Source of the DNA: Candidatus Methylobacter oryzae
GTDB lineage: Bacteria; Pseudomonadota; Gammaproteobacteria; Methylococcales; Methylomonadaceae
Reading direction: 5' to 3'
Assembly (NCBI GenBank): GCA_945861405.1
Contig: CAMAUL010000005.1
Coordinates: 1,629-65,628 of the forward strand
DNA: 64,000 nt
Under the pieces are notes generated by a model. That model was given only the letters and a program-made list of their open reading frames with translations, was not told the origin of the DNA and made no database searches. Below are positions 9,190 through 31,767 of the stretch, in pieces. The position numbers were made by a program, and so were the translations under genes. Positions within the stretch are counted from its first letter, which is position 1; the number at the start of each line of letters is the position of its first letter.

Positions 9190-9346
9190 TAACGATGAGC
9201 ACCCCGGCGTGGGAATACAGTTAGTGACGCTCCAGCGTCGCGTTTGTAAGGACGACAGACCGGAGTTCCCATGCCAAAGATAGTGCCGCAGGGAGCGAAC
9301 CTTTCCCTACCCCTGCTTATTCAATAAAAACACTCCATACACTGAA

Positions 9347-15731: not shown

Positions 15732-17318
15732 GTGAAGAACTCTTTTTTTCTGGTTATACCAACTCAACAAAAAAATTCCCCGCGCCTGACAGAATTTGAA
15801 GCCAAGGCGCTGCAACATTGGATTGCAGAACTGCCCACGGCTAATCCTAGCCTAGCTACGCGCCTGCTTCACGACATGCTTATCGATTTCAATACCATTG
15901 AAATGGCGGCTCAGATGCGGCTGGATGCGCTGGAGCTTTTAAGTCCCAGCGTTCATGACATTGAGGACTATCTTCGATCCAGGCTGATTAAAGCAGGTTT
16001 CCCGAAAGAAGATAACGACAAGAAAATCCTGAGCGTATTGGTCTCAATTGAAAAGGAATTCACTATTGGTTATTGGATGGTGCTTAAGGAGTTAACCAAG
16101 CGCGATGTCAGCTGGTTTCAAGGCAAGAATGCGGCATTAACGATCCAGCGCTGCATTAAAGGGCTGGGCAATATTATTGTCAGTCATTTTATTATGGGGA
16201 TGCCGATACCAGATTGGGTGTGGATAGATCTACATTCGCTTTATAGCCTGAGTGTAAAAATAAAAAATGATTCGACTAAAATTAGCAATGACGTAAGTCC
16301 GTCCAAAAAAGCCAGTAGCCCGGAAGAGTGTTATCGGCAGATCCTCCTGCTCAGTCTTGCTGATCCGACCGGCTTAATGCAAAAGGAAATTTTGTTGGTT
16401 TATGGTTTTATCGAAACGATAAGTTCTTTAGTCGCTCTAAAAAAAGAGCAGGTGAAAGATCAGCAGATACAGTGCATCGTCTTAACGGACGAGGACAAAG
16501 CACCGCATTACCAGTATGAAGCCAGTGCTAAAAATGAATCAGCAACACTGTATCTGGACTTTAGCAAATTGTTCAAGACATTTAAGCAGAAAGGAAAATT
16601 GATTAATGCGGCGGAGGCAAGGTTCAGCTCGATGCATGTATTGAACAATAAGCTTGAACAACCCGCAGCGGAATTGCTCGATTACCTGGAGCAACGGTGG
16701 ATGGGCGTCGATTTGCAGGGCATACCCTTTTTTAGTGACCGGTCGGATCGGTATATCGCCGTGGGCCTTGAGTCCACCCATGAATTGCAAAATGCGCTGG
16801 AACCCGTGGGCGAGAAAGATCTGGAATTTCTCGTTCAGTCGGCATCTGACCGGTTATTGTCTGGCGTATTTATAAAAACGGGAGTCCTGTCAGTGGGTAG
16901 TCTGGTCAGCTTTAGAAAAGCAGACAGCCCCGAGCATAAACGTTCATTAGGCATAGTCAACAAAGTCATTGTCGACAAGCAAAGCGGCAGAATAAACTTT
17001 GGCATGCAATTGTTGGCTCATCAATCCATCGCCGTCACCTACGTACAATTGGATGAAGTGGGCAAAGATGTTCCGCAAAAAGGCCTGTTTTACAGTGCAA
17101 AAGAGCTGGAAGATGAAAAAAACTACATCATCACCGATAGTTTTATGCTGAAAGACAGCGATGTTCTCCGGGTATACATGAATAACGAAGACTTCCCGGT
17201 TGTATTAAGTAACAGGAAAAATGTCGGACTGGGTTACTGGCAGTTTGAATGCCGACGGGTGGCGGAAAGGGGTAAAGTAGCAGTGGCGCAGGCTAAAAAA
17301 GGCTACGATTTCATTTAA
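15732..17318 (+). CDS. hypothetical protein (528 aa)
   Basis: Long ORF with a GTG start. No family recognised by eye. Confidence 0.5.
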   Translation: MKNSFFLVIPTQQKNSPRLTEFEAKALQHWIAELPTANPSLATRLLHDMLIDFNTIEMAAQMRLDALELLSPSVHDIEDYLRSRLIKAGFPKEDNDKKILSVLVSIEKEFTIGYWMVLKELTKRDVSWFQGKNAALTIQRCIKGLGNIIVSHFIMGMPIPDWVWIDLHSLYSLSVKIKNDSTKISNDVSPSKKASSPEECYRQILLLSLADPTGLMQKEILLVYGFIETISSLVALKKEQVKDQQIQCIVLTDEDKAPHYQYEASAKNESATLYLDFSKLFKTFKQKGKLINAAEARFSSMHVLNNKLEQPAAELLDYLEQRWMGVDLQGIPFFSDRSDRYIAVGLESTHELQNALEPVGEKDLEFLVQSASDRLLSGVFIKTGVLSVGSLVSFRKADSPEHKRSLGIVNKVIVDKQSGRINFGMQLLAHQSIAVTYVQLDEVGKDVPQKGLFYSAKELEDEKNYIITDSFMLKDSDVLRVYMNNEDFPVVLSNRKNVGLGYWQFECRRVAERGKVAVAQAKKGYDFI

Positions 17319-17550
17319 ATAACGCATATCGTTGAAAAATAGCGCGATATGCATATAGCACTTGAAAAGTTTTTTTATCGTGGTAAGTTGGCGTGTCGAG
17401 TTGGTTGGTGGCGATGAATTGTCGGTTTTTAAGCCGACATCTAAATACAAGGAGAGAGTGCTTGTATCTATCAGTTATCGGGGTAATCAGGTAATATGCC
17501 TTGAGCAAAAACCTGAACATAATAATAAATTACAATTATGAGGATAAGAA

Positions 17551-18036
17551 ATGAGTAATGAAGAAAATGCTAAAAAATCGGTAGAAGCGGCGAAAGAGGT
17601 TGCTGGTAAGCTGTTTTCATCAGCGATGGATTTAAAAGAAAAAAGCCCCAAAGTATTTTTTGGCGCTATTGGCGGCATCGTCGTCCTGCTGTTGGTCATC
17701 ATGATGAGCGGCGGTGATTCAGGTGTTCTTCCCAAATCTTCGGCCAAGAACCTTGCTGTCGGACAGCGGTATGTATTGAAAAACCCTAATACGTATGAAA
17801 TCGAATCTCCTATTAAATTACTTGCTGTGCCTGGCTCTATAGCAGCTTATGACGATAGTGAAGATGAAGAAAAAGGTAAAGTTGAATCTTGCAGACGCAT
17901 CGCTCAGGGGACGGCGATAACTATCATAGGATTTCAAGAGGCTTATGGTAAGAAAAATGCGTTTGTTAATGTCCAGGTTGAGGATGGTGATTGCAAAGGC
18001 AATACCGGCTGGGTTTCGGCGATTGATGTCCAATAA
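17551..18036 (+). CDS. hypothetical single-pass membrane protein
   Basis: 161-aa ORF with RBS AGGATAAG. One TM helix (FFGAIGGIVVLLLVIMM) and a beta-rich, SH3-like C-terminal part. Confidence 0.5.
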   Translation: MSNEENAKKSVEAAKEVAGKLFSSAMDLKEKSPKVFFGAIGGIVVLLLVIMMSGGDSGVLPKSSAKNLAVGQRYVLKNPNTYEIESPIKLLAVPGSIAAYDDSEDEEKGKVESCRRIAQGTAITIIGFQEAYGKKNAFVNVQVEDGDCKGNTGWVSAIDVQ

Positions 18037-18085
18037 GCATTGACAAGATTTTAAAAAAAATTATAATAGGCGGATAAATTGCAAC

Positions 18086-18160
18086 GCGGGAATAGCTCAG
18101 TGGTAGAGCACAACCTTGCCAAGGTTGGGGTCGCGAGTTCGAATCTCGTTTCCCGCTCCA
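18086..18160 (+). tRNA. tRNA-Gly (GCC)
   Basis: GCGGGAA acceptor stem pairs with TTCCCGC. Anticodon loop CTTGCCAAG. T-arm GGTTCGAATC-like. Encoded CCA. Confidence 0.9.
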
Positions 18161-18170
18161 ATTAATTTTA

Positions 18171-18200
18171 AAAAAGCCGCGAAATATCGCGGCTTTTTTA
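18171..18200 (+). terminator. rho-independent terminator-like hairpin
   Basis: AAGCCGCGAAATATCGCGGCTT followed by TTTT. Confidence 0.6.
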
Positions 18201-18212
18201 TTTCACTTTTAC

Positions 18213-18286
18213 GGCTGCGTAGCAAAATGGTTATGCAGTGGCCTGCAAAGCCATCTACGGCGGTTCGATTCCGCCCGCAGCCTCCA
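18213..18286 (+). tRNA. tRNA-Cys (GCA)
   Basis: GGCTGCG acceptor stem pairs with CGCAGCC. Anticodon loop CCTGCAAAG. T-arm GGTTCGATTCC. Encoded CCA. Confidence 0.9.
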
Positions 18287-18320
18287 ATAGTGAATTCAAA
18301 CGAGTTCAAAGAAGTACAAA

Positions 18321-18354
18321 AACCCGCAAGTCACAAGGCTTAGCGGGTTTTTTA
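18321..18354 (+). terminator. rho-independent terminator-like hairpin
   Basis: AACCCGC-N15-GCGGGTT followed by TTTTT. A near-identical copy lies at 26430-26470. Confidence 0.6.
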
Positions 18355-18449
18355 TTGTCCAACGAAGTGCAATAGGGTTTATTGACATGCCCCCAATCGT
18401 GGGGGTATAAACGGGGGTATATTCAAATTCAGCAGAGTTGATACCCCCA

Positions 18450-19669
18450 ATGCCGCTATCAGATACCACCATCAAGAACGCTAAACCCAATGCAGACAAG
18501 GCTTACAAGCTACCTGATGAAAAAGGTATGTACTTGTTGGTTAATCTTAACGGTTCGAAATACTTTAGGCTTAAGTATCGTTTTGGGGGCAAAGAAAAGG
18601 TTTTAGCCCTTGGCGTTTATCCCGATACCGGTTTAAAACAGGCCAGAGAAAAACGAGACGAGGCCAGAAAACTACTTGCTGATGGTATCGACCCCGGAGA
18701 AAACAGAAAAGCGGTTAAATCATCAAAGGCAGAAAGTGCGGCAAACAGCTTTGAGGTCATTGCCCGTGAATGGGGCTCAAAAAAAGTTAATGAGTGGGAC
18801 GATAAAAATAACCGTTCCAAACGGATGCTTGAAAGAAATATATTTCCCTGGCTGGGTGGCAAGCCCATAACTGACATTTTGCCTAAAGATATTCTGGACT
18901 GTTTACGGCGTGTCGAAGATCGGGGAACCATCGAGACAGCGCACCGAACCCTTCAGATATGCGGGCAGGTTTTCCGCTATGCGGTCGCAACGGGCAGAGC
19001 CGAGCGAGACATAACGCCAGATTTGCGGGGTTCATTGCCACCGGCCAAAGGCGAACACTTTGCAGCCATTACCGAGCCGAAAGCCGTAGCGGAGTTATTA
19101 AGAGCAGTTGACAGCTACCAAGGCTCACTACCTGCCGTTTGTGCGCTAAAACTTGCGCCGCTGGTGTTTGTTCGCCCTGGCGAATTAAGGGCGGCAGAGT
19201 GGCAGCATATCGACCTTGAGGCTAAAGAATGGCGTTACTACGTATCAAAGACTGCTGTGCAACATATCGTCCCGCTATCATCCCAAGCCGTGGCAATATT
19301 GGAAGAGGTGCGCCCGTTTTCCGGTCATGGGCGCTTTGTATTCCCGTCAGAGCGCACCCCACGCGGTGACAGATGCATGAGCGACAACACCCTTAACGCC
19401 GCATTAAAACGACTGGGTTACGGTATAAGGACGTAATGACCGCACACGGCTTTAGAGCAATGGCGCGTACTATCCTAGATGAAGTGTTGGGGGTAAGGCC
19501 TGACTTTATCGAACATCAACTAGCCCACGCCGTTAAAGACCCGAACGGCAGAGCCTACAACAGAACAGCGCACCTACCGGAACGTCACAAGATGATGCAG
19601 CAATGGTCAGACTACCTGGACGGCTTGAAGAATGGGGCGCAAGTGATCCCGTTCAAAAAGCCTGCTTAG
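18450..19669 (+). pseudogene. P4-type tyrosine integrase, split by a frameshift near 19420-19436
   Basis: N-terminus MPLSDTTIKNAKP... (DUF4102-type arm-binding domain). The first frame ends ...LKRLGYGIRT*. The -1 frame continues YKDVMTAHGFRAMARTILDE..., which holds the HxxR and catalytic Tyr region. Confidence 0.8.
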
Positions 19670-19855
19670 GCCAATACACGGTAAATAATCTTATATACCC
19701 CCGCACCCGAAACAAAGCAACGCCAGATAGCCGGGCAGTTTGGGCGTGCTTTTTGTTAGCTTTCACCCGCCCGCAATCATCAGGCCGATACCGCTACGAT
19801 TTGCCGTAATGATACGCGGTCAATTTGCGGCAGCAGCTGCCCCGTTGTAAAAGTT

Positions 19856-20030
19856 TAAGGGGGGTATATATAATTCTTGGGGCTTTTGGGGCGAAAGCTT
19901 TATAAGCCTTATATACCGTGGTTTACAGCCGCCCCAAACACGTAAATTTAATGGGGAGTTGTTGGGGCATTTGGGGCGCTTTTATTAATTTTTTGGGGCT
20001 TTTTAGAAAAACATTAATAAATAGGGGCGT
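19856..20030. repeat. left iteron array (TTGGGGC x6) / left arm of a long inverted repeat
   Basis: TTGGGGC at 19877, 19886, 19962, 19971 and 19993, plus variants. CCGTGGTTTACAGCCGCCCCAAAC is the exact reverse complement of 25232-25255. Confidence 0.8.
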
Positions 20031-20188
20031 TTTCGCCGTCTAAATCGATTGATGTCTGCGGTGCTTAAAATCGCACACCTGATATAATCCAAATTGACCG
20101 GATAGCTCGACGGAGCAATAAGCGGGATTCGTTCCCCCGTTTCCGGTTATTTCTTTCTGGACGACTTGCACTTTGACGAGGTGTTATT

Positions 20189-20641
20189 TTGCCTGAAATT
20201 CCATGTGACGATGTAATTCACTATACAGTTGAATATAAAGATTACAAAAACTTACGGCTTCATGAGAGGCTTGCAATTAATGCCTATATGTTGGGCAATG
20301 ACACACAGCTGATACAATCAATCCTTACGGAGAATGAAGAAATTTCTAAGAGCATGAGGCGTTTTATTGCCGATATGATTTCTGGAAAGATAAAGCGCGA
20401 GGCAAGCAAGCAAGAAACAACGATCCACCATAAGATTGCCCTTTGCAGAGAAATAGACGCTTTAGCTAAAGGTAAAGCGCAAGACAAAGCCGTTGCCGTT
20501 GGCATTATTGCAGCGCGCGAGCATAGATCATCTGAAGCAATTAACACCAGGTACTACGAAGGCAAAAAAGCCATCAAAGCAGATCGAGACGCTTTGCTAA
20601 AGTATATGATTGATAATTATCACCCTAAAGGCGAAAAATAG
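20189..20641 (+). CDS. hypothetical protein (150 aa)
   Basis: ORF with a TTG start preceded by GAGGTG. No recognisable family. Confidence 0.45.
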   Translation: MPEIPCDDVIHYTVEYKDYKNLRLHERLAINAYMLGNDTQLIQSILTENEEISKSMRRFIADMISGKIKREASKQETTIHHKIALCREIDALAKGKAQDKAVAVGIIAAREHRSSEAINTRYYEGKKAIKADRDALLKYMIDNYHPKGEK

Positions 20642-20791
20642 TTAAGCTGTTGTTGTCAACAGCGCCCCGCCACACTATTTTTACTTCCCTGTCTATTTGA
20701 AATTCAATCTCATTATTCAAATAGACCAACACCCCCGACATCGCTTTAAACTCTCCTCGAATTTTATTAATTAATCGATGGAGTACGACTG

Positions 20792-21049
20792 ATGGTTACA
20801 AAAAACGCAAACGCCCAACTAAAACCACGCCAGAAAATCACCTACGTTGCAAGTGCGCTCCCCCTGGAGGGCTATATCCGCCTGCCCAGTGTGCTAGCCG
20901 TGATTGGGATCAGCAAGACCAGTTGGCACGATGGGCAAAAATCGGGCAAATATCCCGCCGGAAAATTACTATCCCCGCGCTGTCGAGTTTATCCCGTTAC
21001 AGAAATTCGCGCCTTGCTGGCTTCAATTGAAAAGGGGGCTGCAGTATGA
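20792..21049 (+). CDS. AlpA-family regulator / excisionase-like HTH protein
   Basis: 85 aa. 'YIRLPSVLAVIGISKTSWHDGQKSGKYP....LSPR...Y...EI' is the AlpA/Xis HTH pattern. Confidence 0.75.
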   Translation: MVTKNANAQLKPRQKITYVASALPLEGYIRLPSVLAVIGISKTSWHDGQKSGKYPAGKLLSPRCRVYPVTEIRALLASIEKGAAV

Positions 21050-21510
21050 ACACACAATCAAAACCCGCTCAATCCGAGCAAGCCCACCTGAGCCTTAACG
21101 ATTTGCATCTGGCTTTTGCTAATAGCTGTATTCCTTACCGCGTACTCATTACTGCTGGCTTGGATGTCGATCACAAAACAGACCGTTTGCAAAGGCTTGC
21201 TGACGGAGTCGGGAAACTCGACGCTATTACCAAGCAGTTGCTTAGAAACGCTTGTGGTGCAATTGGTGCAACGGATTCCGCTAATTTTCCACCATATGCT
21301 GAGATAAACCAACCATTCAACCAAACCCCGACCCTTGTTGATTTGCACCATGCCTTTGCTGATGTCTGCTACTGGTATGGCGCACTCGTTATAAAAGGCC
21401 GGCATGACGAATGCGTAATATACCATCTGCAATACCTTGCTGGACAGGTAGAGCAATTCGATACCATTACCAAGCAGTTGCTTAGTAATGCTTGCGGAGG
21501 TGCAGAATGA
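21046..21510 (+). CDS. hypothetical protein with an internal tandem duplication
   Basis: ATGA overlap with alpA. Two ~60-aa repeats each end in ITKQLL.NACG. Confidence 0.5.
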   Translation: MNTQSKPAQSEQAHLSLNDLHLAFANSCIPYRVLITAGLDVDHKTDRLQRLADGVGKLDAITKQLLRNACGAIGATDSANFPPYAEINQPFNQTPTLVDLHHAFADVCYWYGALVIKGRHDECVIYHLQYLAGQVEQFDTITKQLLSNACGGAE

Positions 21511-21785
21511 ACGCTTCCGATACTAAATTCAACCACCGCATAAATGCCGGGCAAGATGGAAAGTTTTTCAGCCTTCATGACGCAATAAACCCGTCTTTGG
21601 AACGCGCCACTGCAATAGCCGATTTGATCGAAGTTGCCTGTGAAGTGGTCGATGTAACCAGTTTCGAGTCAACTACCCTCTGGCGGGCTGCTCAAGCGAT
21701 CCGCCTTGAGATTAAAGATACTCAAACAATACTGGTCGCCTGCCTTGATGAGAATAAAAACAGTAATCAGGAGGTGCAATCATGA
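21507..21785 (+). CDS. hypothetical protein
   Basis: ATGA overlap with the upstream gene and RBS GGAGGTG. 92 aa. Confidence 0.5.
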   Translation: MNASDTKFNHRINAGQDGKFFSLHDAINPSLERATAIADLIEVACEVVDVTSFESTTLWRAAQAIRLEIKDTQTILVACLDENKNSNQEVQS

Positions 21786-22084
21786 GCGATAACGCCCGTA
21801 CTCAACCGGTTTCAAGACCGCCAACGGTAGAGTGTTTTTTTGTGGCTGTTAATAAGCAGAGCGACAGCTATAAGCTGTTGCTTTCGCCTGTTTCGCCATA
21901 CTTTAGAACCCTTGAAGAGGCCAAGGCGTTTCACACAACTTTCAAGATAGAAGGTTCTTATTGTGCTGATTCGACTTATTACCCAAGAAGCGCAGAAGAT
22001 GCCAAGCAACATGAAGAGGAGTTGTTTGGTAGTGAAACCAAGCTGGCACGCAGGCATAAAAAACCCACCCAAACCACCATTTGA
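21782..22084 (+). CDS. hypothetical protein
   Basis: ATGA overlap with the upstream gene and RBS AGGAGGTG. 100 aa. Confidence 0.5.
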   Translation: MSDNARTQPVSRPPTVECFFVAVNKQSDSYKLLLSPVSPYFRTLEEAKAFHTTFKIEGSYCADSTYYPRSAEDAKQHEEELFGSETKLARRHKKPTQTTI

Positions 22085-22172
22085 GCGGGTTTTAGCATCC
22101 AACAAGACTACTAAACCAGCGGCTATTTTACCGCGTGGCGCTGTTGGGTGCTACCCGCAAGGAAAGCATTTT

Positions 22173-23093
22173 GTGAACACTTATCAAATTATTGACGCTT
22201 TTAAAGCGTCGATGCGCGAAGCTGACATTGAGCCGCCCGATAAAATTCTGGCTGATGGCGTTTTACACCGTTTCCACATTGTCGGTCAGAAACAAGGCAG
22301 CTTGAATGGAGCCTACAAACTGCACCTGGACGGTGCGAAGCCCGCCGGGTATTTTGAAGATTTTAAAACCGGCATCAAAGCCAACTGGAAGGCCGACAGC
22401 CCCGCTAAACATTTCACCCCAGCCGAACGCCAGCAGCATGAGGTCGCCAAAAAGACACGAGATCAACAGCAAGCGCAGCGGTACGAACAAACCGCAAACT
22501 TAGCGCAACGTATACTTGACGCAGCCAAACCGCTGACCGGAAACGACCACCCTTATTTGCTGAAAAAGCGCATCGATTCACATGGTTTGTATCGGCTGAA
22601 GGTCTGGACGAAACGCCACAAAAATGATGCTGAGCAATGGGTGAACCTCAATATTCAGAATGTTTTATTGGTGCCGTTGATCGACATCAATGGCAAGCTT
22701 TGGAACTTGCAAGCGATATTCTCAGAGACAGACCCGACTTTAGGGCGTGATAAAGATTTTTTAAGCGGCGGACGGCTGGGCGGATTATTCCACGTTATCG
22801 GCCAACCGACTGACGAGGTGATTATTTGCGAAGGCTATGCAACCGGAGCCAGCCTGCATACCGCCACCGGCTCCCAGGTGCTTTGCGCCCTGTCGGCAGG
22901 CAACCTGTTCAATGTCGCCAAAGCAGTACGCGCCGCTGATTCCCGCAAAAAGATAATACTCGCCGCTGATAATGACTTAAAAACGCCCGGCAATCCCGGA
23001 GTGACCGCCGCAAAAAAGGCGGCGCTGGCCGTAGGCGGTTTTCTGGCCGTGCCACCGGTGGCGGGCGACTTTAATGATATGGAGTGCGTGTGA
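22173..23093 (+). CDS. Toprim-domain primase-like protein
   Basis: 'DGVLHRFH..G.K.GS.NGAYKLHLDG.PAGYFEDFKTG' N-terminal pattern, then Toprim 'VIICEGYATGASL...ILAADND'. The start is uncertain: GTG at 22173 after AGGAAA, while the ORF is open from 21963. Confidence 0.7.
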   Translation: MNTYQIIDAFKASMREADIEPPDKILADGVLHRFHIVGQKQGSLNGAYKLHLDGAKPAGYFEDFKTGIKANWKADSPAKHFTPAERQQHEVAKKTRDQQQAQRYEQTANLAQRILDAAKPLTGNDHPYLLKKRIDSHGLYRLKVWTKRHKNDAEQWVNLNIQNVLLVPLIDINGKLWNLQAIFSETDPTLGRDKDFLSGGRLGGLFHVIGQPTDEVIICEGYATGASLHTATGSQVLCALSAGNLFNVAKAVRAADSRKKIILAADNDLKTPGNPGVTAAKKAALAVGGFLAVPPVAGDFNDMECV

Positions 23094-25051
23094 AAAAGAC
23101 ACCCGATAACCCGATTTTAACCGTCGTCAAGTCGGCTCAACCGGTCAACAATACGGGCGAGGCCGATAAATGGGCAGACCGCCGAATCGGTGATTATTGC
23201 ATCAGCCACAGCTGCATATTTTTTATGCGAAAAGGCCGCGACAATAAGGAAGGCAAGATTAACGAAATCCCAACGCCATTAACACATAATTTTGTGGCGT
23301 TGATTGCCGAGCAAATCAATTTGGACGACGGCCTAAAACAGGAAGCCGCTTTTTTAGTGGAAGGTAGACAGAAAAACGGGCAGCCATTACCGACGCTCAC
23401 AATCCCAGCCACGCAATACCAAGCTATGCAGTGGCCGTTACGAAATTATGGCGGGCGCGGCATTGTTGAGGCCGATCAAGCCACACCGCGCCGACTGGCA
23501 AACGGTATCTTGATATTAAGCGGTGATATTCCGATAACCACGGTTTACCAGCACACCGGCTGGAGGCATATCAACGACCAATGGTTTTATCTCAGCGGCA
23601 GCGGGGCGATAGGTGCAGAGGGGTTGAATATTGACACCCGCGTTGAACTGGGCGAAGGTCACATGCAGCGTTACGTATTGCCCGCGCCCGCTGCCAGCCC
23701 TGGACAGATGGCAGCTACACTGTTCAGCCTGTTGTATATCGCGCCAGAAAATAAGGCTGTTGGTGTGTCGCTATTTTGCGGCGTAGTTCGGTCTGTGTTG
23801 GGCGAGTGTCTACCGGTTGACTTCGCGTTGTTTCTGTCCGGTCAATCAGGCTCACAAAAGTCGGAATGCGCGGCTCTGGCGTTGGCCTGTTTTGGCGACT
23901 TCAACGCCCGGAGATTCCCGGCTAATTTTACCGATACTGAAAGCGATCTTGAACATAAAGCCCACCAGGCAAAGGATGCAATTTTCGTTGTCGATGACTT
24001 GGCTCCAGGTTCTAGCCAGCAGGAAGCAAACAAAATGAATACTAAATGTGACCGGTTGTTTAGAGGCGCAGGCAATCAAAGCGGGCGCGGTCGCCGCAAC
24101 GCCGACATGACCGGCAAGGCGGCATATTTCCCGCGCTGCATGATTGTCGCCACGGGTGAAGATACGCCGAAAGGCGCATCATTGCTAAGCAGGATGCTTG
24201 TTATCGAATTTAAGCGCGGCGATGTAGCCTTGTCATCACTTACCAGTTTGCAACACCTGTCGCAAAAGGGTGAGCTGTCGACAATTATGGCCGCATTTAC
24301 AAAATGGCTTGCGCCGCGCATGCCCGACCTGAAAAAAACTTTTCCGAACATGGTGCATTCTATCCGCGATAAGGCATTGGCGGGAAACTTCGCTACCAGT
24401 CACCCACGCGCCGCCGACATTTACGCGAGCTTATACGCGGCGGCGGATATTTATATCGAGTTCTGTCACGAAGTTGGAGCCATTAATTCAATCCGCGCCA
24501 CTGAACTGATGGAGACCATCGACGACGCACTGAAAGACGCGATCCGGGCGCAAGGTCAATTTCAAAAACAAAGTGATGAAGTGGAAAGATTTATTGCCTT
24601 GTTACGCGGCTGTTTTAGCGCGGGGGAATGCCATGTAAGCGACTCCATGAACCAAGGCCCGCCGGTGCAGCATCCGTTTATTTGGGGATGGCGCACCCCT
24701 AGCGAAGGTGCCGATGTTGCCGGGCGCGGTCAGTTAATCGGCTGTGTTAATCAGATCAACGGTGAATTATGGCTTGACCCGGAGGCGACTTTCAAGACCG
24801 TGCAAAAGTTCGCCAGTTCGCAAAATGACCCGATTCTGATACAAAAAGCAACGCTTTGGAAAAGGCTGTTAGAGCGTGGGCTATTGACCACCTATGAGGT
24901 GAGCAAAAAATCAGGTGTAAAAAGGCCAGACGTAAAAAGGAGCGTGACCGGTAAGCGTGTTCGGGTGCTGATTTTCAATACCAATGTTATTGAAAACGTC
25001 GATTTGATTGTCAACAAAGACATAAAATCGGAGCATTCAGGCGATGATTAA
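23084..25051 (+). CDS. DUF927-like P-loop NTPase (replicative helicase candidate)
   Basis: 655 aa. Walker A-like GQSGSQKS and Walker B-like IFVVDDL. Overlaps the primase gene by 10 nt. Confidence 0.6.
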   Translation: MRVKKTPDNPILTVVKSAQPVNNTGEADKWADRRIGDYCISHSCIFFMRKGRDNKEGKINEIPTPLTHNFVALIAEQINLDDGLKQEAAFLVEGRQKNGQPLPTLTIPATQYQAMQWPLRNYGGRGIVEADQATPRRLANGILILSGDIPITTVYQHTGWRHINDQWFYLSGSGAIGAEGLNIDTRVELGEGHMQRYVLPAPAASPGQMAATLFSLLYIAPENKAVGVSLFCGVVRSVLGECLPVDFALFLSGQSGSQKSECAALALACFGDFNARRFPANFTDTESDLEHKAHQAKDAIFVVDDLAPGSSQQEANKMNTKCDRLFRGAGNQSGRGRRNADMTGKAAYFPRCMIVATGEDTPKGASLLSRMLVIEFKRGDVALSSLTSLQHLSQKGELSTIMAAFTKWLAPRMPDLKKTFPNMVHSIRDKALAGNFATSHPRAADIYASLYAAADIYIEFCHEVGAINSIRATELMETIDDALKDAIRAQGQFQKQSDEVERFIALLRGCFSAGECHVSDSMNQGPPVQHPFIWGWRTPSEGADVAGRGQLIGCVNQINGELWLDPEATFKTVQKFASSQNDPILIQKATLWKRLLERGLLTTYEVSKKSGVKRPDVKRSVTGKRVRVLIFNTNVIENVDLIVNKDIKSEHSGDD

Positions 25052-25140
25052 GATGGCACAGTGGCCTTTATTCGCAGTACCAGCCTGCTAAAAGTTTTAG
25101 CTGAAAATCTGGCAAAGGTAAAAAAATTGACCTGTAAAGA

Positions 25141-25163
25141 GCCCGGAAAAATCCGGGTTTTTG
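25141..25163 (+). terminator. rho-independent terminator-like hairpin
   Basis: GCCCGGAAAAATCCGGGC-like stem followed by TTTTT. Confidence 0.55.
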
Positions 25164-25169
25164 GTGCAA

Positions 25170-25320
25170 AAATCATCATCCGCCCCAAATAAAACAGCAA
25201 ATGCCCCAGCATTTCCCCAAAAAAATACGGGTTTGGGGCGGCTGTAAACCACGGGTGGCATGGCTTACAGCCGTTCGCCCCAAAATCCCCAAGTTTTACA
25301 ACATACCCCCCCCTATAGTT
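25170..25320. repeat. right iteron array (GCCCCAA series), mirror image of 19856-20030
   Basis: GCCCCAA/TCCCCAA at 25182, 25203, 25214, 25277 and 25286. The reverse complement aligns with the left arm over more than 80 nt. Confidence 0.8.
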
Positions 25321-25499
25321 TTATGTTTATCGTGTTGGTCATCTGAATGTTTAGTAACTTTCTTAGGGGCTGACTACACAAAACGCGGGGTTCGAATTAC
25401 CCGCATTGGGGAATCGCTGGAAGTACCTTTTACCCTGGCGCTTCGGACTAAAAGCTATACATGACTTGTTAAGTAACGCGCCTACCAGGGGCATGTTTG

Positions 25500-25751
25500 T
25501 TAGGGGCGCGGGGCTTGTAGAATGGCTTGAAACAGTGAAAGCAGCGCGGCTAAAACCACGACGGTGACCAAGTAAGGAAGGAACAGTAAGAGCGCGCCAA
25601 AGGGTGCGACAATAGCCGATACAATCAGCGCCGCCCATGCTGTGCCGCCGCCATGTATCGCTGCGACAAAGCAACCAGCAAAGGTGATGGCAATAATCAT
25701 TTGTGGGTGATAAGGCCAATCAATGATGTGATCAAAGCTATTTTTAGGCAT
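25500..25751 (-). CDS. small membrane protein (83 aa)
   Basis: Start at the internal Met with RBS AAGGAGA. Three hydrophobic helices. Confidence 0.5.
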   Translation of the reverse strand: MPKNSFDHIIDWPYHPQMIIAITFAGCFVAAIHGGGTAWAALIVSAIVAPFGALLLFLPYLVTVVVLAALLSLFQAILQAPRP

Positions 25752-26087
25752 AAAATCTCCTTGAAGTAGGTTGTGAGTGTAGCTAATAAAGCCGATGGTT
25801 GTCATGGTAAATAACTTGGCAGAGGGTAAGCCGCAATGGTTGCGATTAATAATGTAATACATTATTTAACATAATGTCCGTTATGCGAAGTTATTGATGT
25901 ATTACAATAATAACTTGACTTCTTGAATCCTAAGTACAGCGCGGCCTGTAGCGTGTTTTTCATTATTGCGCATAAAGTTGACATTATCTGTTATTTATGT
26001 ATTACAATATTATGCAATATAGCCCGCAGCGCTTGCGGCAGGGTATTGATGAATTACATTTAATGCTTTTCTGAGGAGACACCGCCA

Positions 26088-26249
26088 ATGGAACAAAAAA
26101 AAGCACGCGCCAAAGGGGCAGGCCGTAAGCCATTGCCGCCTGAAGATCGAGCCAAGGTTATATCTTGCCGATTAACCGAGGCACAACACAAACGGTTTAT
26201 CGAACTGGGTGGCGTTGTCTGGCTAAGACAGCAGATCGATAAAGTTTAG
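26088..26249 (+). CDS. small basic protein, possible ribbon-helix-helix regulator (53 aa)
   Basis: Not in the ORF track (<60 aa). RBS GAGGAGA. Sequence MEQKKARAKGAGRKPLPPEDRAKVISCRLTEAQHKRFIELGG... Confidence 0.45.
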   Translation: MEQKKARAKGAGRKPLPPEDRAKVISCRLTEAQHKRFIELGGVVWLRQQIDKV

Positions 26250-26412
26250 TTCGTCTACTTGGAATTTATGCGGGCTATTTGATGTGGGCTTTTGTGGCAA
26301 AAACAGGGGCAGCATTGAGCGCGTGGGGGTACTTTTGGGGGTATATTTAAAAAACGAAATCAACAAAGCCTTTAACAGCAGGTCGTGCAGAGTCTATTGT
26401 GATAGAGCCCGC

Positions 26413-26500
26413 AAAACAGATTCAACAAAGTCCAATAACCTGCAAGTCATAAGGCTTAGCGGGTTTTTTATTGTCCAACGAAGTGCAGGGGTTTGTTGAC
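26413..26500. repeat. direct repeat of 18303-18392 (island junction)
   Basis: CCTGCAAGTCATAAGGCTTAGCGGGTTTTTTATTGTCCAACGAAGTGCAGGGGTTTGTTGACATACCGCC aligns with 18323-18392 with few mismatches. Confidence 0.85.
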
Positions 26501-26508
26501 ATACCGCC

Positions 26509-26715
26509 ATAAAGAACGCTAAATCCACCGAAAATCCTTATAAAATACGGGATGAGAAAGGTATGTACTTGCTGGTTCATCCTAATGGCGGCAAATACTT
26601 TCGATATGATTACCGCTTTGACGGTAAGCGCAAAACCTTAGCATTGGGAACTTACCCGATAACATAACTCAAAGAAGCCAGAGATAAGCGAGATACCGCC
26701 AAAAAACAGATTGAT
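26509..26715 (+). pseudogene. second P4-type integrase, N-terminal stub
   Basis: Reads IKNAKSTENPYKIRDEKGMYLLVHPNGGKYFRYDYRFDGKRKTLALGTYPIT*LKEARDKRDTAKKQI. It parallels residues 9-75 of the 18450 integrase, has no start codon and has an in-frame stop. Confidence 0.8.
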
Positions 26716-26896
26716 ATCACATTTTATTTGACAGGGTTACTTTGATTGGTTTTAGCTTACTGGTGGATAGTTTTTAAGAAAGCAAAAGGCTCGCCCCCTT
26801 TAATATGCGTTCGGACAGGCCATTATGGGCTATAGTTAACATCTATCCAATGTGGACAAAATAGCCATAAAAACAACTTTGCAAGGAAAATATGAC

Positions 26897-27379
26897 ATGA
26901 ACCGAAAACCAGGTCAGAACCGATTCTTTGATATTGATGGTGATGTTTCAATTCAGTTGGCTCCATGGGTATTAATAAAAAAAGGATACCCAGAAGGCAT
27001 AGCCTATTTTGATCTTAAAATCCCAATACGCTTTTACAGTGATATTGCTAAAGGGGTTATTGTTGTCCCGGAAAACTATCGATCAGACTTGGCATCAATT
27101 CCTCAGTTTGCTTGGTCTATTTTTATGAAACCAGATGACCCACGAATCGAGCTGGGCGGCTGGATACATGATTATCTTTATGAATTAGAAGGAAAAGATA
27201 TACCGTTGGAAGGTGGGAGGAAAGTGTCATTAAGTCGAAAAGAAGCCGATAGGGTACTTACAGAGGAAGCTATGCCCGACCTCTTTGCAAATGACTTCCA
27301 GTGCGAGACCGTTTATCAGATCCTGCGTAAGTTTGGCAAAGGCTGGGCAAACGATTCGTTTTGGGAACGTTTTGATTAA
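26897..27379 (+). CDS. DUF1353 domain protein
   Basis: 'SDLASIPQFAWS........GGWIHDYLY......SRKEADRVLTEEAM' matches the DUF1353 pattern. Start at the Met with RBS AAGGAAA; the ORF track starts at 26852. Confidence 0.65.
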   Translation: MNRKPGQNRFFDIDGDVSIQLAPWVLIKKGYPEGIAYFDLKIPIRFYSDIAKGVIVVPENYRSDLASIPQFAWSIFMKPDDPRIELGGWIHDYLYELEGKDIPLEGGRKVSLSRKEADRVLTEEAMPDLFANDFQCETVYQILRKFGKGWANDSFWERFD

Positions 27380-27434
27380 CATTAAGGCAACTGCTTTCAG
27401 CTAGACATATATTTAAATAAAATTTTCTATCATC

Positions 27435-28388
27435 ATGACAAATAACGAAAATTACTGGTTCATGCTCCAGTTCAAATTGAAGCTTTATCAAGCAACTGGT
27501 GAAGAATTTCAACGCTTATTTAATAGCGTAATGACGGCTAGTCATGGTGAAAATTATCAGTCTGTACGGCCTTGGGGAATCGAAGGTGATGGTGGCAATG
27601 ATGGGTACTTAGCTAACGAAGGGCGTTATTTTCAAGTTTATGCGCCAAGTCCTACAACTAAAACGAATGAAGCATATGCCGTTAAAAAGGCTAAAGACGA
27701 TTTTCATAAATTAAAAGAGAGTCAATCAAACCTAAAACACTATAGTTTTGTGCTAAATGATCGTTTTGTCGGTGGTTCTAAGCCAGTACATCAAGCTTTG
27801 ACTGAAATTTCTAATACACATAATATTCCCACTTCAGTATTCAATAGCGGACATCTTGAACAACGTTTCTTAGGACTGGATAACAACCAGAAGATGAGTA
27901 TAGTTCAAGGGGTGCCCCTTGAGGTTCCAAAATGGATTGATCCACGGATGGTATCGGAGTTACTTGAGTATCTTACTAAATCGTTTAATTTTTCATTGAA
28001 TTTAATGACCGACCAGGACACAGCGCCTGAATTTGAAAAGAAAATTCAAATTAACAACCTCCATCCTGGAATTTCTAAACATTTACGATTGTATGCAAAT
28101 CAAGTTGGAGAGGTTAATGCTTTTTTGAATGCTCGCCCTGGAATGGCGCAAAACATTGCTGATGAGTTACATGAAGTCTATATTGATAGCTTATCTGCAA
28201 TACCTAATACAGAAAAAAGTGCTACGGATTTACGCTTTGTCTATATTTTAGAGCGCATTATACCTCCTGTGGTTAAAATAGATCCCATGCAACGCAGTGG
28301 GTGGCAGCAGATTGCCTTGATTGTCATGGCTAAGTACTTTGAAACTTGTGATATTTATGAGCACCCCGATTCCACTTATTCCACATAA
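27435..28388 (+). CDS. candidate effector of an ABC-3C/Lamassu-like system
   Basis: 317 aa. The N-terminus 'EEFQRLF...WGIEGDGGNDGY...YFQVYAP' resembles an Mrr-like PD-(D/E)xK layout but lacks the usual Lys. The C-terminal ~200 aa are uncharacterised. Overlaps the next gene. Confidence 0.55.
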   Translation: MTNNENYWFMLQFKLKLYQATGEEFQRLFNSVMTASHGENYQSVRPWGIEGDGGNDGYLANEGRYFQVYAPSPTTKTNEAYAVKKAKDDFHKLKESQSNLKHYSFVLNDRFVGGSKPVHQALTEISNTHNIPTSVFNSGHLEQRFLGLDNNQKMSIVQGVPLEVPKWIDPRMVSELLEYLTKSFNFSLNLMTDQDTAPEFEKKIQINNLHPGISKHLRLYANQVGEVNAFLNARPGMAQNIADELHEVYIDSLSAIPNTEKSATDLRFVYILERIIPPVVKIDPMQRSGWQQIALIVMAKYFETCDIYEHPDSTYST

Positions 28389-28638
28389 GCATATCCGTTT
28401 TTCCGAGAGCATTTTGCTACTCGCTGGATTTGTGCGCACTTACTTGCTTGATCGCCCGCAAACCTTGGATGAGCTATGGACGCGACTTCATAGCCTACGG
28501 AAAGACCATGTTTGGCTTGATGATATATCATTTTCCAGGCTTGTGCTTGCAGTGGATGTCCTGTTTGCTATAGGGCAAATTGATAGTATCAAGGATGATT
28601 ATATCGGTTTAAAGGACTCCTCTAATGCGACTGATTAA
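28357..28638 (+). CDS. small middle-component/adaptor protein of the three-gene system
   Basis: 93 aa. Overlaps the upstream gene by 32 nt and the downstream gene by 14 nt. The start is uncertain (a TTG at 28321 is also possible). Confidence 0.5.
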   Translation: MSTPIPLIPHKHIRFSESILLLAGFVRTYLLDRPQTLDELWTRLHSLRKDHVWLDDISFSRLVLAVDVLFAIGQIDSIKDDYIGLKDSSNATD

Positions 28639-30337
28639 ACTATCTGCCAACCAGCCAGGTTTCAAAACGATACATTTCAATCCACAAGGCTTGACCCTTA
28701 TTGTTGGGGTCTCATCTGGCGGAGAGCAAGAAGGTAATTCAAATGGTGTTGGCAAATCACTTGCGTTGCGATTAGTGCATCACTGCCTTGGAGCAAATGC
28801 TAATAAAAATTTCAGTGAAAAACTTCCTGAGTGGGTTTTTCGCCTTGATTTTGAAATTAATGGGCAGTTTCACACTATAGAGCGTAGTGCAGACAGCAAG
28901 ATAATAACACTGGACAACCAGTCGATTAAATTGAGGAATCTAACAAATTGGTTGAATGAAAGTGGCGTCTTTGACCTTACGGCCGCCTCTAATCTTCCTA
29001 TTACATTTCGTTCGCTTATCAAACGATTTGCTCGATTAGAAAAATCCGACTGTATAGAGCCAGACTCCACAGCTAAAGAAACGCCTTTCGACGCGCTAAT
29101 ACGCACACTTTTTCTTTTAGGTTTAGATGTTAGTTTGGTATCACGTAAACATGAATTTAAAAAGCGCATTGATGCTTTAAAGAGCGCGAGCCAATTATGG
29201 AAAATCAATCCAGCACTGCATGACATGTTTCGTGCAGGTGATGATGCGCGCATTCGCGCTAATTGGCTAAAAGATAAAATACCTGAATTAAAAGAGCAGC
29301 TTGGTAGAATGGTAGTAGCAGAAAACTATCGAGACCTGGAGCAGGAAGCTAATAGACAAACACTATTATTGCGCGGTATATCACAAGAAATTGAGTTACT
29401 GAAATTTCAAGTTAAGGGTATTTCTGAGCTACTTGTTGAACACCCAGATGTTAGCTCTCAAGAGCTCTTGGCGTTATATAAGGGATTGGAGGGTGTTTTT
29501 AAAGCAGAAGCGTTAAAACACTTCGAGGCAGTTGAGCAGTTCCATAGCAGTTTGACTGAGAGCAGAAAGCGGAGGCTTTTAGGTGATCTTACACGGATCA
29601 ATGCAGAAATCGAAACCAAACAGTTTGAGCAGAAAAAGCTGGAAGAACAGCGCGACAAACTTCTGCAATCGTTGATAGGTAAAACAGCTTTTGAAGAATA
29701 TCGTGCAGTAGCTAATCAGCTTGCTCAACAGGAGCAGGAACTTAAAGCCCTCAATGATTATTTGGAATTCGACGTCAACGTTAATAAGGAAACTTTGAGC
29801 ATTAAAGAAACCATGCTCCACGATACTCATCAAGCCGTTACATATCTTGAGAATAATCCTATTGCTGAACTAGAAACCCGTTACCGCACACTCACACAAC
29901 CTTTATATCCAAATGCAGCTTCCGGCATCACCTTTGAAAATAATACAGGTGAAAATATGATGCGCTATACGTTTAAGCCTCGCCTCGAAGGGTCGGGTTC
30001 TGATGGTATTAAAGATGCTCGGTTGTTATGTTTTGATTGGTTGGTTTTCATGCACGGAGCAAATCATACAATGCGCTTTCTTTGGCATGATAATAGGCTT
30101 TTTGCACACCTTGATCCCGGTGTCCGTGCCAGATGGTTTTCCCTTGTATTGACAGAATTAAAATCAACAGAAAAACAGTACATCGCTACTATTAACGCAG
30201 AAAACTATGACAGCATGCTTACATGGCTTTCTGAGAAAGAGAGAGCAATCTTAGAATCTCCAGGCGTTAAAGCTTTAGAGTTACGTGGCAACCAGCCAAG
30301 AGATAAACTTCTTGGGATTCAAGTTGATTTACAATAA
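28625..30337 (+). CDS. SMC-like ABC ATPase with coiled-coil insert (DUF2326/YydD-like)
   Basis: Walker A GNSNGVGKS near the N-terminus. E/K/L/Q-rich coiled coil over ~aa 190-400. C-terminal signature-like GSGSDGIKD and Walker B/D-loop-like MRFLWHDNRLFAHLD. Confidence 0.7.
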   Translation: MRLIKLSANQPGFKTIHFNPQGLTLIVGVSSGGEQEGNSNGVGKSLALRLVHHCLGANANKNFSEKLPEWVFRLDFEINGQFHTIERSADSKIITLDNQSIKLRNLTNWLNESGVFDLTAASNLPITFRSLIKRFARLEKSDCIEPDSTAKETPFDALIRTLFLLGLDVSLVSRKHEFKKRIDALKSASQLWKINPALHDMFRAGDDARIRANWLKDKIPELKEQLGRMVVAENYRDLEQEANRQTLLLRGISQEIELLKFQVKGISELLVEHPDVSSQELLALYKGLEGVFKAEALKHFEAVEQFHSSLTESRKRRLLGDLTRINAEIETKQFEQKKLEEQRDKLLQSLIGKTAFEEYRAVANQLAQQEQELKALNDYLEFDVNVNKETLSIKETMLHDTHQAVTYLENNPIAELETRYRTLTQPLYPNAASGITFENNTGENMMRYTFKPRLEGSGSDGIKDARLLCFDWLVFMHGANHTMRFLWHDNRLFAHLDPGVRARWFSLVLTELKSTEKQYIATINAENYDSMLTWLSEKERAILESPGVKALELRGNQPRDKLLGIQVDLQ

Positions 30338-30420
30338 TGTGTAAAAGCGAGGGTGTAAGAATTTTTGTGTAAATGGTCATTTGGTAGGAAACTGCCACCA
30401 CTTTTAACGAGGAGTTAGAA

Positions 30421-30510
30421 ATGACCGTAAGCAATGAACTGATTGACAGCCTGCTGGCTAATTATAAGAAACCCGAAGACCTAATTGGTGAATACGGAAT
30501 TTTAAAGCAA
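30421..30510 (+). pseudogene. IS256-family transposase, first ~30 codons only
   Basis: MTVSNELIDSLLANYKKPEDLIGEYGILKQ matches the conserved IS256/mutator N-terminus. The frame then runs into the antisense of the ATPase gene. Confidence 0.65.
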
Positions 30511-31182
30511 CAGGCTGTCCGCCGCTGCATCGTCCAGGTTGCGCAAATGCTGCGGGGATAAATAGCTTGGGAATGTCGAAGTCATGGCATCAGGCAGGCG
30601 CTGAAAATGCTCCGCCAACGGCAAGCGCGAGGCCACCACCAAGGCTAATTGAGTAGCGGTGATGAGGGAGCGTAAGCCATTATAAAATTGCGGCACCTGA
30701 AAACCGGCGTGGTGTTGGGACTCCAGCAGCTGCTCGAATTCGTCCACCAGCAACACCGGGCGACCTAAGCTGTTATCGGACAATTGCCGCAACAGCCGTT
30801 CGAAGCTGTCGAAATCGGCATCCGGCGAGTGTTGCAGGTTTTGCAGCAGTGCTGCGGAATCAGGCAGGATTACCGTGTCGGGCAGGACGGTCAAAATCCC
30901 CCTTATCGCCAAGCCGTAAAAGCGTCGGGCATCGGTGATGTTTTGCAGGTCAACGCGGACTAACAGCAAGGGCGGTGTGCCCGGTGCGGGACGATGTGCG
31001 GGGTTATCCTGCAAATGGTTGAGGAACGAGGTTTTGCCCATGCGTCGCTCACCGACTAGGTTTACGGATTCGAACTTGCCCAACGCGGCATGGATCAAGG
31101 CAAAAGTTTCCTCGCGCCCAAACAGCGGTTCGTTGGCCGTTAAAGGCCGACCAACGGCAAACGGTGACTGCGGTGCATCCAT
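30502..31182 (-). pseudogene. STAND/AAA-type ATPase, 3'-truncated by the IS256 stub
   Basis: Walker A GERRMGKTS and Walker B LLVDEFEQL. Only 226 aa, and the last codons and stop are supplied by IS-derived sequence. Confidence 0.6.
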
Positions 31183-31234
31183 GACAGTGTCCTAATGTTG
31201 TTATTTTGTAGCGGCTTTAAATTTCAGGGCATTT

Positions 31235-31464: not shown

Positions 31465-31767
31465 ATGCATACGATTTTAACAACAGACGTTTTTGATTCG
31501 TGGTTTGGGCAGTTGCGCGATAACCACGCAAAGGCGCGCATAAAAGTCAGGCTACGCCGGGCTGAAGATGGTAATTTCGGCGATGTAAAACCCGTGGCTA
31601 AAGGCATCTCTGAAATGCGCATTCATTACGGCCCCGGTTATCGGCTGTATTTCATGCAAAACGGTTTCGAAATCGTGTTGTTATTGGCTGGCGGCGATAA
31701 ATCAACGCAAGCCGATGATATTCAAACGGCAGTAGCGCTGGCGAGAAAACTGAAGGAGGGAAAATGA
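31465..31767 (+). CDS. RelE/HigB-like addiction-module killer protein
   Basis: 100 aa. 'F..W...L.D..A...I..R..R...GN.GD.K.V..GISEMRI..GPGYR.YF.....EIVLLL.GGDKS.Q..DI' is the typical pattern. Confidence 0.8.
   Translation: MHTILTTDVFDSWFGQLRDNHAKARIKVRLRRAEDGNFGDVKPVAKGISEMRIHYGPGYRLYFMQNGFEIVLLLAGGDKSTQADDIQTAVALARKLKEGK

Follow-up and report, generated by a model that had tools for sequence, protein, structure and literature searches.

Opposed iteron arrays around a primase-helicase operon: a candidate split replication origin in a satellite-like island of Methylococcales

Introduction

The 64,000-nt stretch of Candidatus Methylobacter oryzae DNA analyzed here (assembly GCA_945861405.1, contig CAMAUL010000005.1, positions 1,629 to 65,628; hereafter the window, in whose numbering positions are given) contains an 8.1-kb island at approximately 18290-26414 that adjoins a tRNA-Cys gene, with tRNA-Gly and tRNA-Cys lying together at 18086-18286. 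From left to right, the island consists of an integrase gene, a first repeat array, a promoter and an int-alpA RNA motif, small open reading frames (ORFs), a primase gene, a helicase gene, a terminator, a second repeat array, a minus-strand ORF, AT-rich repeats, a 53-aa ORF, and the attR repeat (Table 1). Judged by gene content alone, it appears to be a phage-satellite-like island in a Methylococcales chromosome; no helper phage is known. An initial annotation had described the two arrays as mirror-image iteron clusters that recall the ori/crr arrangement of satellite phage P4 or, alternatively, the ends of a nested mobile cassette or an invertible segment. We argue from comparison with related islands that the arrays are probably the two halves of the island's replication origin, bound by its cognate initiator, a helicase of the SaPI-Rep/Cch type, a reading to which we assign a probability of roughly 0.75.

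Table 1. Features of the island and its edges, in window coordinates.
Feature	Position	Strand	Evidence or remark
attL-side repeat beside tRNA-Cys (18213-18286), island left end	18298..18371	+	Direct repeat, 88% identical to 26414-26487
P4-type tyrosine integrase, frameshifted	18438..19669	+	Pfam Arm-DNA-bind_3, Phage_int_M, Phage_integrase
Candidate left (L-type) origin arm	19856..19979	+	nhmmer arm profile E 1.6e-28; orthologous to L-type arm of compact relatives
AT-rich tract at inner end of left arm, with two iterons (TTGGGGC 19993, TAGGGGC 20022)	19980..20028	+	Base composition
Extended -10 promoter-like TGATATAAT	20080-20088	+	Read by eye
int-alpA RNA motif	20095-20163	+	Rfam RF02996, 46.9 bits against a gathering score of 35.8
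Five small ORFs between left arm and primase	20189..22084	+	ORF list
Toprim-type DNA primase	22173..23093	+	Pfam Toprim_3 E 8e-13; PHROG DNA primase E 3e-60
Initiator-helicase, 655 aa, presumed iteron-binding	23084..25051	+	AlphaFold2 model and Foldseek
Hairpin and T-run, terminator-like, between helicase stop codon and right arm	25136..25162	+	RNA fold -18.6 kcal/mol for 25126-25170 (45 nt)
Candidate right (R-type) origin arm	25182..25316	-	nhmmer arm profile 25316-25195, E 3e-25; further iteron at 25182
attR-side repeat copy, island right end	26414..26487	+	Direct repeat; followed by integrase N-terminal remnant 26501-26712
GGGGGTATA boxes	18401-18448, 19694-19702, 19860-19868, 25302-25310, 26337-26345		Motif scan of 64 kb

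Two opposed arrays bracket the primase-helicase operon

The two arrays form a single inverted repeat: in a minus-strand self-comparison of 17000-28000 with blastn, 19859-19973 pairs with 25198-25311 over 116 nt at 78.4% identity (E 1e-18), a pairing also recovered when the left array is aligned by MAFFT with the reverse-complemented right array. The initial annotation's claim of a match exceeding 80 nt is thereby borne out. Similarity in the central part of the arms reaches 82% and includes an exact 24-mer, CCGTGGTTTACAGCCGCCCCAAAC, found on the plus strand at 19916-19939 and as its reverse complement at 25231-25254; the annotation had the matching sequence right and its coordinates one base off. 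The GGGGGGTAT ends that it had reported as matching are indeed present at the outer ends of both arrays (19859-19867, plus strand; 25303-25313, minus strand). As it had also proposed, the arrays bracket the primase and helicase genes, and the bracketed segment holds in addition the five small upstream ORFs and the int-alpA RNA motif.

The repeat unit TTGGGGC occurs 12 times in the window, a total that is not above the expectation from shuffled sequence (mean 14.6), but 9 of the 12 copies fall inside the two arrays, with opposite polarity. Because nine copies cluster in 344 bp where 0.08 would be expected (Poisson P ~3e-16), TTGGGGC is not a generic repeat scattered at similar density throughout the window, the alternative that the initial annotation had itself named. 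The left array has six exact copies (plus strand at 19877, 19886, 19962, 19971, and 19993; minus strand at 19931) and a one-mismatch variant, TAGGGGC, at 20022 on the plus strand, in keeping with the earlier count of at least five copies plus variants. The right array, described earlier as the complementary series, has three exact copies (minus strand at 25182 and 25277; plus strand at 25233) and one-mismatch variants at 25203, 25214, and 25286, all on the minus strand.

Each array is built around a conserved module of ~125 nt, which we call an arm, with 5-7 copies of the 7-bp iteron TTGGGGC each. Read inward, the left arm consists of the GGGGGGTAT box, two direct TTGGGGC copies, a TATAAGCC box, GGTTTACAG, the inverted iteron at 19931, a short A/T tract, and further direct iterons; the right arm is the same module on the opposite strand, with iterons of the GCCCCAA series and GGGGGGGGTAT at its outer end. 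The right arm begins ~130 nt past the helicase stop codon, and the left arm lies 3.2 kb upstream of the helicase gene. At the inner end of the left arm, 19980-20019 has a GC content of 17.5%, which ties it as the AT-richest 40-mer of the island, and contains a short inverted repeat (19981-19994 / 20008-20021). Together with its two iterons, this tract (19980-20028) is a candidate DNA-unwinding site. No comparable AT-rich tract was found at the right arm, so that within the window a strongly AT-rich tract is present only at the left one.

The operon encodes a putative SaPI-Rep-like initiator and a separate primase

The 655-aa helicase has no informative Pfam or PDB sequence match, and a phmmer search against PDB sequences returned only a spurious choline-binding repeat. 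Since sequence searches were uninformative, a fold search was needed to place the protein. An AlphaFold2 model (mean pLDDT 85, 26 homologues in the alignment) has as its best Foldseek matches in the PDB the SCCmec helicase Cch (5dgk, E 4e-13) and SaPIbov1 Rep (8tch, E 8e-12), each with probability 1.0 over ~630 aligned columns, whereas D5/SF3 helicases match far more weakly (E ~1e-3). Identity to SaPI Rep is just 11-13%, and no HMM links the two. The C-terminus of the model forms a helix-helix-hairpin, with a weak match to the TrmB winged helix-turn-helix domain at residues 592-621; this domain seems to be winged-helix-like and would be the part that binds iterons. On the strength of the modeled fold, the protein is best described as a predicted SaPI-Rep/Cch-type initiator accompanied by a separate Toprim primase and not as a P4-like replicase. 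Its homologues are nearly all from Methylococcales (Methylobacter, Methylomonas, Methylomicrobium, and others). For the primase, position 22173 as the start is in line with a 306-aa gene called in a locus (L039) that is 95% identical to the window overall.

Related islands carry the same arms in three geometries

A pattern search of GTDB genomes with the helicase alignment yielded 32 loci, and looking up five metagenome homologues added nine more; these are referred to here by L numbers where they need to be told apart. A profile of the arm built from eight arms (those of the window, L001, L016, and L010) finds a ~125-nt module with the same internal order in nearly all of the 32 genome and nine metagenome loci: a GGGGGTATAT box, two direct iterons, a TATAAGCC-like box, GGCTTaCAG, an inverted iteron, an A/T tract, and more iterons. 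Throughout the family, L-type and R-type arms can be distinguished, and the left arm of the window is of the L type and the right arm of the R type.

In the most common layout, which we call compact (~22 loci), an L arm on the plus strand and an R arm on the minus strand face each other 60-250 bp apart, 11-800 bp past the helicase stop codon; these relatives do have opposed iteron sets around a central AT-rich region. In two loci the order is flipped to R then L, with the outer ends facing (L032 9852-10143; L023 10061-10360), and in L023 the arms surround a strongly AT-rich (TA)n spacer. The layout of the window, which we call split, belongs to one helicase clade with 10 independent loci (the window, L039, L034/35, L037/38, L040/41, L042, L001, L003, L004, and L005). 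Here, the L arm lies between the integrase and the operon and the R arm at the operon end, 0.1-3.5 kb past the helicase, so that the entire operon lies between iteron sets separated by 5-9 kb; in L034, L037, L040, L042, L003, and L005 the R arm lies beyond a capsid or protease-capsid fusion gene. All nine split loci in which TGGGGC was counted have 4-7 copies per arm, with opposite polarity, against 0.1-0.6 per kb elsewhere. Helicase identity within the split clade goes down to ~50%, and in all 10 independent loci the bracketed operon has one orientation relative to the integrase. By these sequence comparisons, the split appears to be old and maintained. The homology of the window's arrays to the paired arrays that follow the helicase in ~22 islands also sustains the initial annotation's reading of them as iterons.

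One locus allows the split to be placed on the sequence. In L027, which occupies the same tRNA site, the integrase end joins, within 12 bp, the homologue of window 20075-20189, which means that 19660-20075 is extra DNA in the window; this extra DNA holds the integrase terminator region, the L arm, and the AT tract at 19980-20019. No single-step rearrangement from compact to split could be derived, as both the position of the L arm and that of the capsid block differ.

The related loci also bear on the second suggestion of the initial annotation, that of a nested cassette with the arrays as its terminal inverted repeats or of an invertible segment, in which they would be the recombination sites for flipping the 5.3-kb replication module. 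The 116-nt inverted repeat with its matching ends is real, and an exchange between arms is implied in L001 and possibly in the window, where part of one arm is closer to the other arm than to its orthologue. However, in ~22 relatives the homologous arms are just 60-250 bp apart, with no cargo between them; none of the ORFs between the window arms has a transposase, invertase, or other recombinase domain; the flanks, as read from sequence, show no direct duplication; and the operon would not be expected in a single orientation in all 10 independent split loci if it were invertible. Short iterons that depend on the helicase are, moreover, not a feature of transposon ends. We therefore set this suggestion aside as highly improbable, the least probable of the explanations considered.

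How much weight the long arm-to-arm match deserves can also be judged from the relatives. In L034, L037, L003, and L004 the two arms of one element are only 57-61% identical, with centers at 36-47%; the long match of the window thus seems to be lineage-specific, and the conserved features are the polarity of the iterons and the order of the module. In L001, the center of the left arm is that of its own right arm (93%), and L040 and L042 share that right arm and differ in the left arm, which indicates that the arms of L001 have exchanged sequence. In the window, the match may reflect in part shared ancestry, because the left arms of L040 and L042 also carry CAGCCGCCCCAAA, and in part homogenization. 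A recent gene conversion was considered as the cause of the window's long match and not adopted: with CAGCCGCCCCAAA present in these other left arms, the case is weaker than for L001.

The constancy of the pair is also relevant to the possibility that each arm is a self-sufficient origin that needs no interaction with the other, might fire in one direction, and would tolerate the split. An arm, with its direct iterons, inverted iteron, A/T tract, and more iterons, does resemble a miniature origin, and the geometry of the arms varies across the family, from inner ends facing in most loci to outer ends facing to arms kilobases apart. Still, the complete elements in which arms were detected keep exactly one L and one R arm of opposite polarity, with the exception of L002, which may be decayed. 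Because a single arm is otherwise never seen in complete elements, the pair is suggested to be the functional unit; in addition, the window offers a strongly AT-rich tract at the left arm only. Two autonomous origins are, on balance, an unlikely explanation, though one that deserves to be kept in mind.

The relatives also show what the island of the window has lost or never had. An HK97-type major capsid gene or a ClpP-protease-capsid fusion gene lies downstream of the helicase in L034 (7976-9028), L037 (7737-9653), L040 (10977-11945), L042 (11052-13019), and L027 (11937-13016), and no terminase, portal, head-tail connector, or tail gene was detected in the relatives' loci examined. This gene content suggests an undescribed, capsid-encoding, satellite-like island family in Methylococcales. 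The capsid block of its close relatives is absent from the window island, in which the right arm directly follows the helicase terminator. Literature searches on the int-alpA RNA and on satellites in methanotrophs returned nothing relevant.

Iteron sequence follows the helicase

The sequence of the iteron differs between helicase clades (TTGGGGC, TGTGGGGA, TTGAGGGA, TTCGGGAA, TTGGGGGA, and TTAGGGGA), and both arms of one element share the same core, with occasional single-base variants (TATGGGA/TAGGGGA in L007 and L010). Two relatives separate the helicase from other candidate partners. L027, at the same tRNA site, is 88.7% identical to the window in nucleotide sequence over 1.65 kb of the tRNA-integrase region and 75% in the 85-aa ORF product, and only 38% in primase and 41% in helicase (all three in amino acids); its iterons, TGTGGGGA, are different. 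L001, conversely, shares 70% of helicase residues with the window, against 45% for primase, 56% for the 85-aa ORF, and an integrase distant enough that each of the two is ~53% identical to the integrase of L034; its iterons are TTGGGGC, the same as in the window. In these two comparisons, iteron identity tracks the helicase, as opposed to the integrase, 85-aa ORF, or primase, and the arrays would be the cognate binding sites of the island's helicase. Differences between iteron groups are also seen in the helicase's putative recognition helix and wing, a comparison that is confounded by phylogeny.

Alternatively, the arrays could bind a protein other than the helicase, such as the integrase (as arm-type sites), the product of the 85-aa ORF, or a packaging protein, and act in excision, regulation, or packaging. 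What invites this idea is the GGGGGTATA box, whose five exact copies in the window are all inside the island. Two exact copies and one with a single mismatch lie just inside attL (18401, 18413, and 18440); the remaining exact copies follow the integrase stop codon (19694), mark the outer end of the left arm (19860), and lie just inside attR (26337), and a one-mismatch copy marks the outer end of the right arm. L027, with its near-identical integrase, has the same boxes near its att sites. The arm-end box, however, is found family-wide, even with unrelated integrases, and the iterons of L027 differ from those of the window despite the close similarity of the integrase region and of the 85-aa ORF, while the iterons of L001 are shared despite a much more distant integrase. 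At most the box, and not the iterons, would be the site of another factor, and we regard a non-helicase partner for the arrays as very unlikely.

Other features of the island and its surroundings

The integrase is matched in two frames (18450-19424 and 19427-19666), corresponding to ORFs at 18438-19436 and 19436-19669. The break is a 2-nt (TA) insertion near 19433, where the window reads GGTATAAG and the gene of L039, which is intact, reads GGTAAG; with a broken integrase, the window island may be unable to excise. A megablast search of 19000-26500 against GenBank phages gave no match.

The rightward operon starts immediately downstream of the left arm, with the int-alpA RNA beginning 7 nt past the extended -10. 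The block at 20075-20189 is 86-90% identical in L016 and L027, despite divergence in the rest of the operon. Among the small ORFs, the 85-aa ORF (20792-21049) occupies the alpA position, and most family members have a counterpart with 35-75% identity. Pfam, NCBIfam, and PHROG scans gave no match for it, and, with no HMM in support, the label AlpA was not adopted. The terminator-like hairpin after the helicase is not listed by a consensus terminator scan.

Immediately outside the right arm, an ~85-nt block at 25355-25440 (GTTTAGTAACTTT ... GGGGTTCGAATTACCCGCAT ... GGAAGTACCTTTTACCCT) is conserved in 7 of 9 split-clade loci, and part of it resembles a tRNA T-loop. We considered a structured RNA and rejected it: RNAalifold gave three pairs at -1.8 kcal/mol with no covariation, and Rfam gave no match. 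Farther right, an AT-rich region at 25846-26064, flanked by a minus-strand ORF (25500-25862) and the 53-aa ORF (26088-26249, plus strand), contains GTTATTGATGTATTACAATAATA in three direct copies and an inverted one, and has the look of an operator region that serves divergent promoters. Many family members keep the 53-aa ORF near attR.

Beyond attR, a second, degraded island lies in tandem at 26414-31200, with an att-like repeat, an integrase remnant (26501-26712), a DUF1353 gene (26852-27379), and an ABC-3C-type defense set (CTD10, 27435-28388; MC6, 28321-28638; DUF2326, 28625-30337), after which an AAA/STAND-like ATPase is encoded on the minus strand at 30502-31182. A toxin-antitoxin-like pair at 31465-32087, a Gp49/HigB-like ORF (weak match) followed by a helix-turn-helix antidote (dnstrm_HI1420, E 5e-28), closes the island region on the right, ahead of comF and biotin genes.

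Discussion

If the two arrays are halves of one origin, the initiator would load at the left arm and melt the DNA at the adjoining AT tract (19980-20019), and the right arm would be a second initiator-binding site required in cis, brought to the left arm by a protein-mediated loop, as crr is to ori in P4. The 655-aa helicase would work together with the Toprim primase, and, once on the left arm, it may in addition exert feedback on the operon promoter at 20080. We infer these steps, from the binding of the protein and the melting of the DNA to the loop and the requirement in cis. The evolutionary course would have led from paired arms after the helicase, the common type, to the arrangement in the clade of the window, with the left arm placed past the integrase and ahead of the operon promoter, and the right arm at the operon end. 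In the excised circle, the arm-to-arm distance across attP and int would be ~2.8 kb.

The proximity of the left arm to the promoter raises a further possibility, that only one arm is a true origin and the other a control array, serving as a titration or handcuffing site or as an operator that represses the promoter at 20080. Iteron plasmids use extra iterons for autorepression and handcuffing, and the left arm ends ~50 nt upstream of the extended -10 and the int-alpA RNA. In compact relatives, however, both arms are remote from the operon promoter, which means that an operator role cannot have been the ancestral one. A control function is also compatible with a split origin and cannot be separated from it by sequence alone. 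As an account of the arrays in its own right, we consider a control array distinctly unlikely, somewhat more so than a pair of autonomous origins.

Several observations weigh against the split-origin interpretation. First, inverted iterons surround a short A/T tract within either arm, so that a single arm could serve as a complete origin that needs no looping. Second, the R-then-L order in L032 and L023 implies that no fixed geometry of the arms is needed, which weakens a picture of double hexamers or looping. Third, L002, which is nested in the split clade, has only one L-type arm, placed directly after the helicase. Fourth, helicases and iterons within a clade share descent, which confounds the link between them. 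Finally, the island appears partly decayed, with its integrase frameshifted and the capsid block absent, and the origin may no longer be used in this genome.

Origins made of inverted initiator-binding arrays are normally compact. A broader proposal, which we advance tentatively and which may well fail, is that a compact SaPI-type origin has been pulled apart into half-origins that need initiator looping over 5-9 kb, so that the design of P4 ori/crr has been reached convergently from another initiator family, in an undescribed capsid-encoding, satellite-like group of Methylococcales whose compact sisters are natural controls. To our knowledge, comparison of relatives has never before offered a way to approach the need of P4 for a distant second site, crr. 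Here, one arm module is found with inner ends facing, with outer ends facing, and with the arms kilobases apart, in all three cases with closely related initiators, so whether the halves must be adjacent could be tested with a few mini-replicons. If the arrays turned out to be merely a tolerated rearrangement of the origin, the result would be a tidy annotation and no more. In either case, the locus points to uncharacterized small islands in methane-oxidizing bacteria that lie beside tRNA genes and next to defense genes, some of them with a capsid gene.

Comparison with known systems

The closest parallel is the origin of the SaPI and other phage-inducible chromosomal islands (PICIs). The C-terminal winged helix of SaPI Rep binds iterons immediately downstream of rep, with at least two opposed iterons on each side of an AT-rich center (PMC9371898). 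The likenesses are several: the helicase model matches SaPIbov1 Rep over ~630 columns, a separate primase gene immediately precedes that of the helicase, each element has iterons of its own, and in ~22 relatives the opposed iteron sets flank a spacer directly downstream of the helicase, as in SaPI (PMC9371898). In the window, the right arm keeps this place directly after the helicase, and the left arm has its position upstream of the operon; the two iteron sets are opposed but 5.2 kb apart, and the AT tract adjoins the left set only. The systems differ further in the low identity of the Rep proteins, in the host, here a gammaproteobacterial methanotroph, and in the arms, which are ~125-nt composites with conserved non-iteron boxes. 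SCCmec Cch, the best structural match, is likewise a self-loading helicase of an integrative element, encoded beside a primase, although the type of element and the host differ.

Capsid-forming PICIs and other PICI-type satellites of Proteobacteria share with the island of the window the overall layout, in which integration at a tRNA gene is combined with an integrase, a regulatory region, and a primase-replicase module, and they share with its close relatives an HK97-type capsid or protease-capsid fusion gene; the gene set of these relatives resembles the core components listed in PMC10085698. A difference is that the loci examined gave no sign of a terminase, portal, or head-tail connector gene and that the island of the window is itself without a capsid gene.

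For P4, the comparison uses the annotated P4 record. In the direction of alpha, the record reads ori (type-1 repeats, 9310-9413), the vis-to-alpha operon, the alpha terminator (4604-4628), crr (4291-4590), attP (4078-4097), and int, with the prevailing polarity of the type-1 repeats in ori reversed in crr. The excised circle of the window island would read L arm, operon, primase, helicase, terminator, R arm, ~1.1 kb, att, and int. In both, two clusters of one repeat, mostly of opposite polarity, flank the replicase gene several kilobases apart (4.7 kb in P4, 5.2 kb in the window), one upstream of an operon that ends in the replicase and the other after the replicase terminator, before attP and int; the integrase of the window is also P4-type, and the int-alpA RNA motif is present. 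The likeness that the initial annotation had seen therefore stands for the two repeat clusters and the gene order, and falls short for the initiator and for crr. Alpha is a single polypeptide of primase, SF3 helicase, and winged helix, whereas the primase and helicase of the window are separate proteins, the latter not P4-like; and crr consists of two direct 120-bp repeats, whereas the window has a single right arm, with no second copy found by the profile search. The core set by which SatelliteFinder recognizes P4-like satellites is psu, delta, sid, alpA, epsilon, and alpha with an integrase (PMC10085698). Of this set the window shows only the P4-type integrase, along with the int-alpA RNA motif, and Pfam and PHROG scans found no psu, delta, sid, epsilon, or alpha homologue in it. 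The resemblance to P4 is thus one of convergent architecture and not of descent. An iteron origin served by an initiator of the SaPI-Rep type is known; what is new here is its split form and, with it, the convergent likeness to P4 ori/crr.

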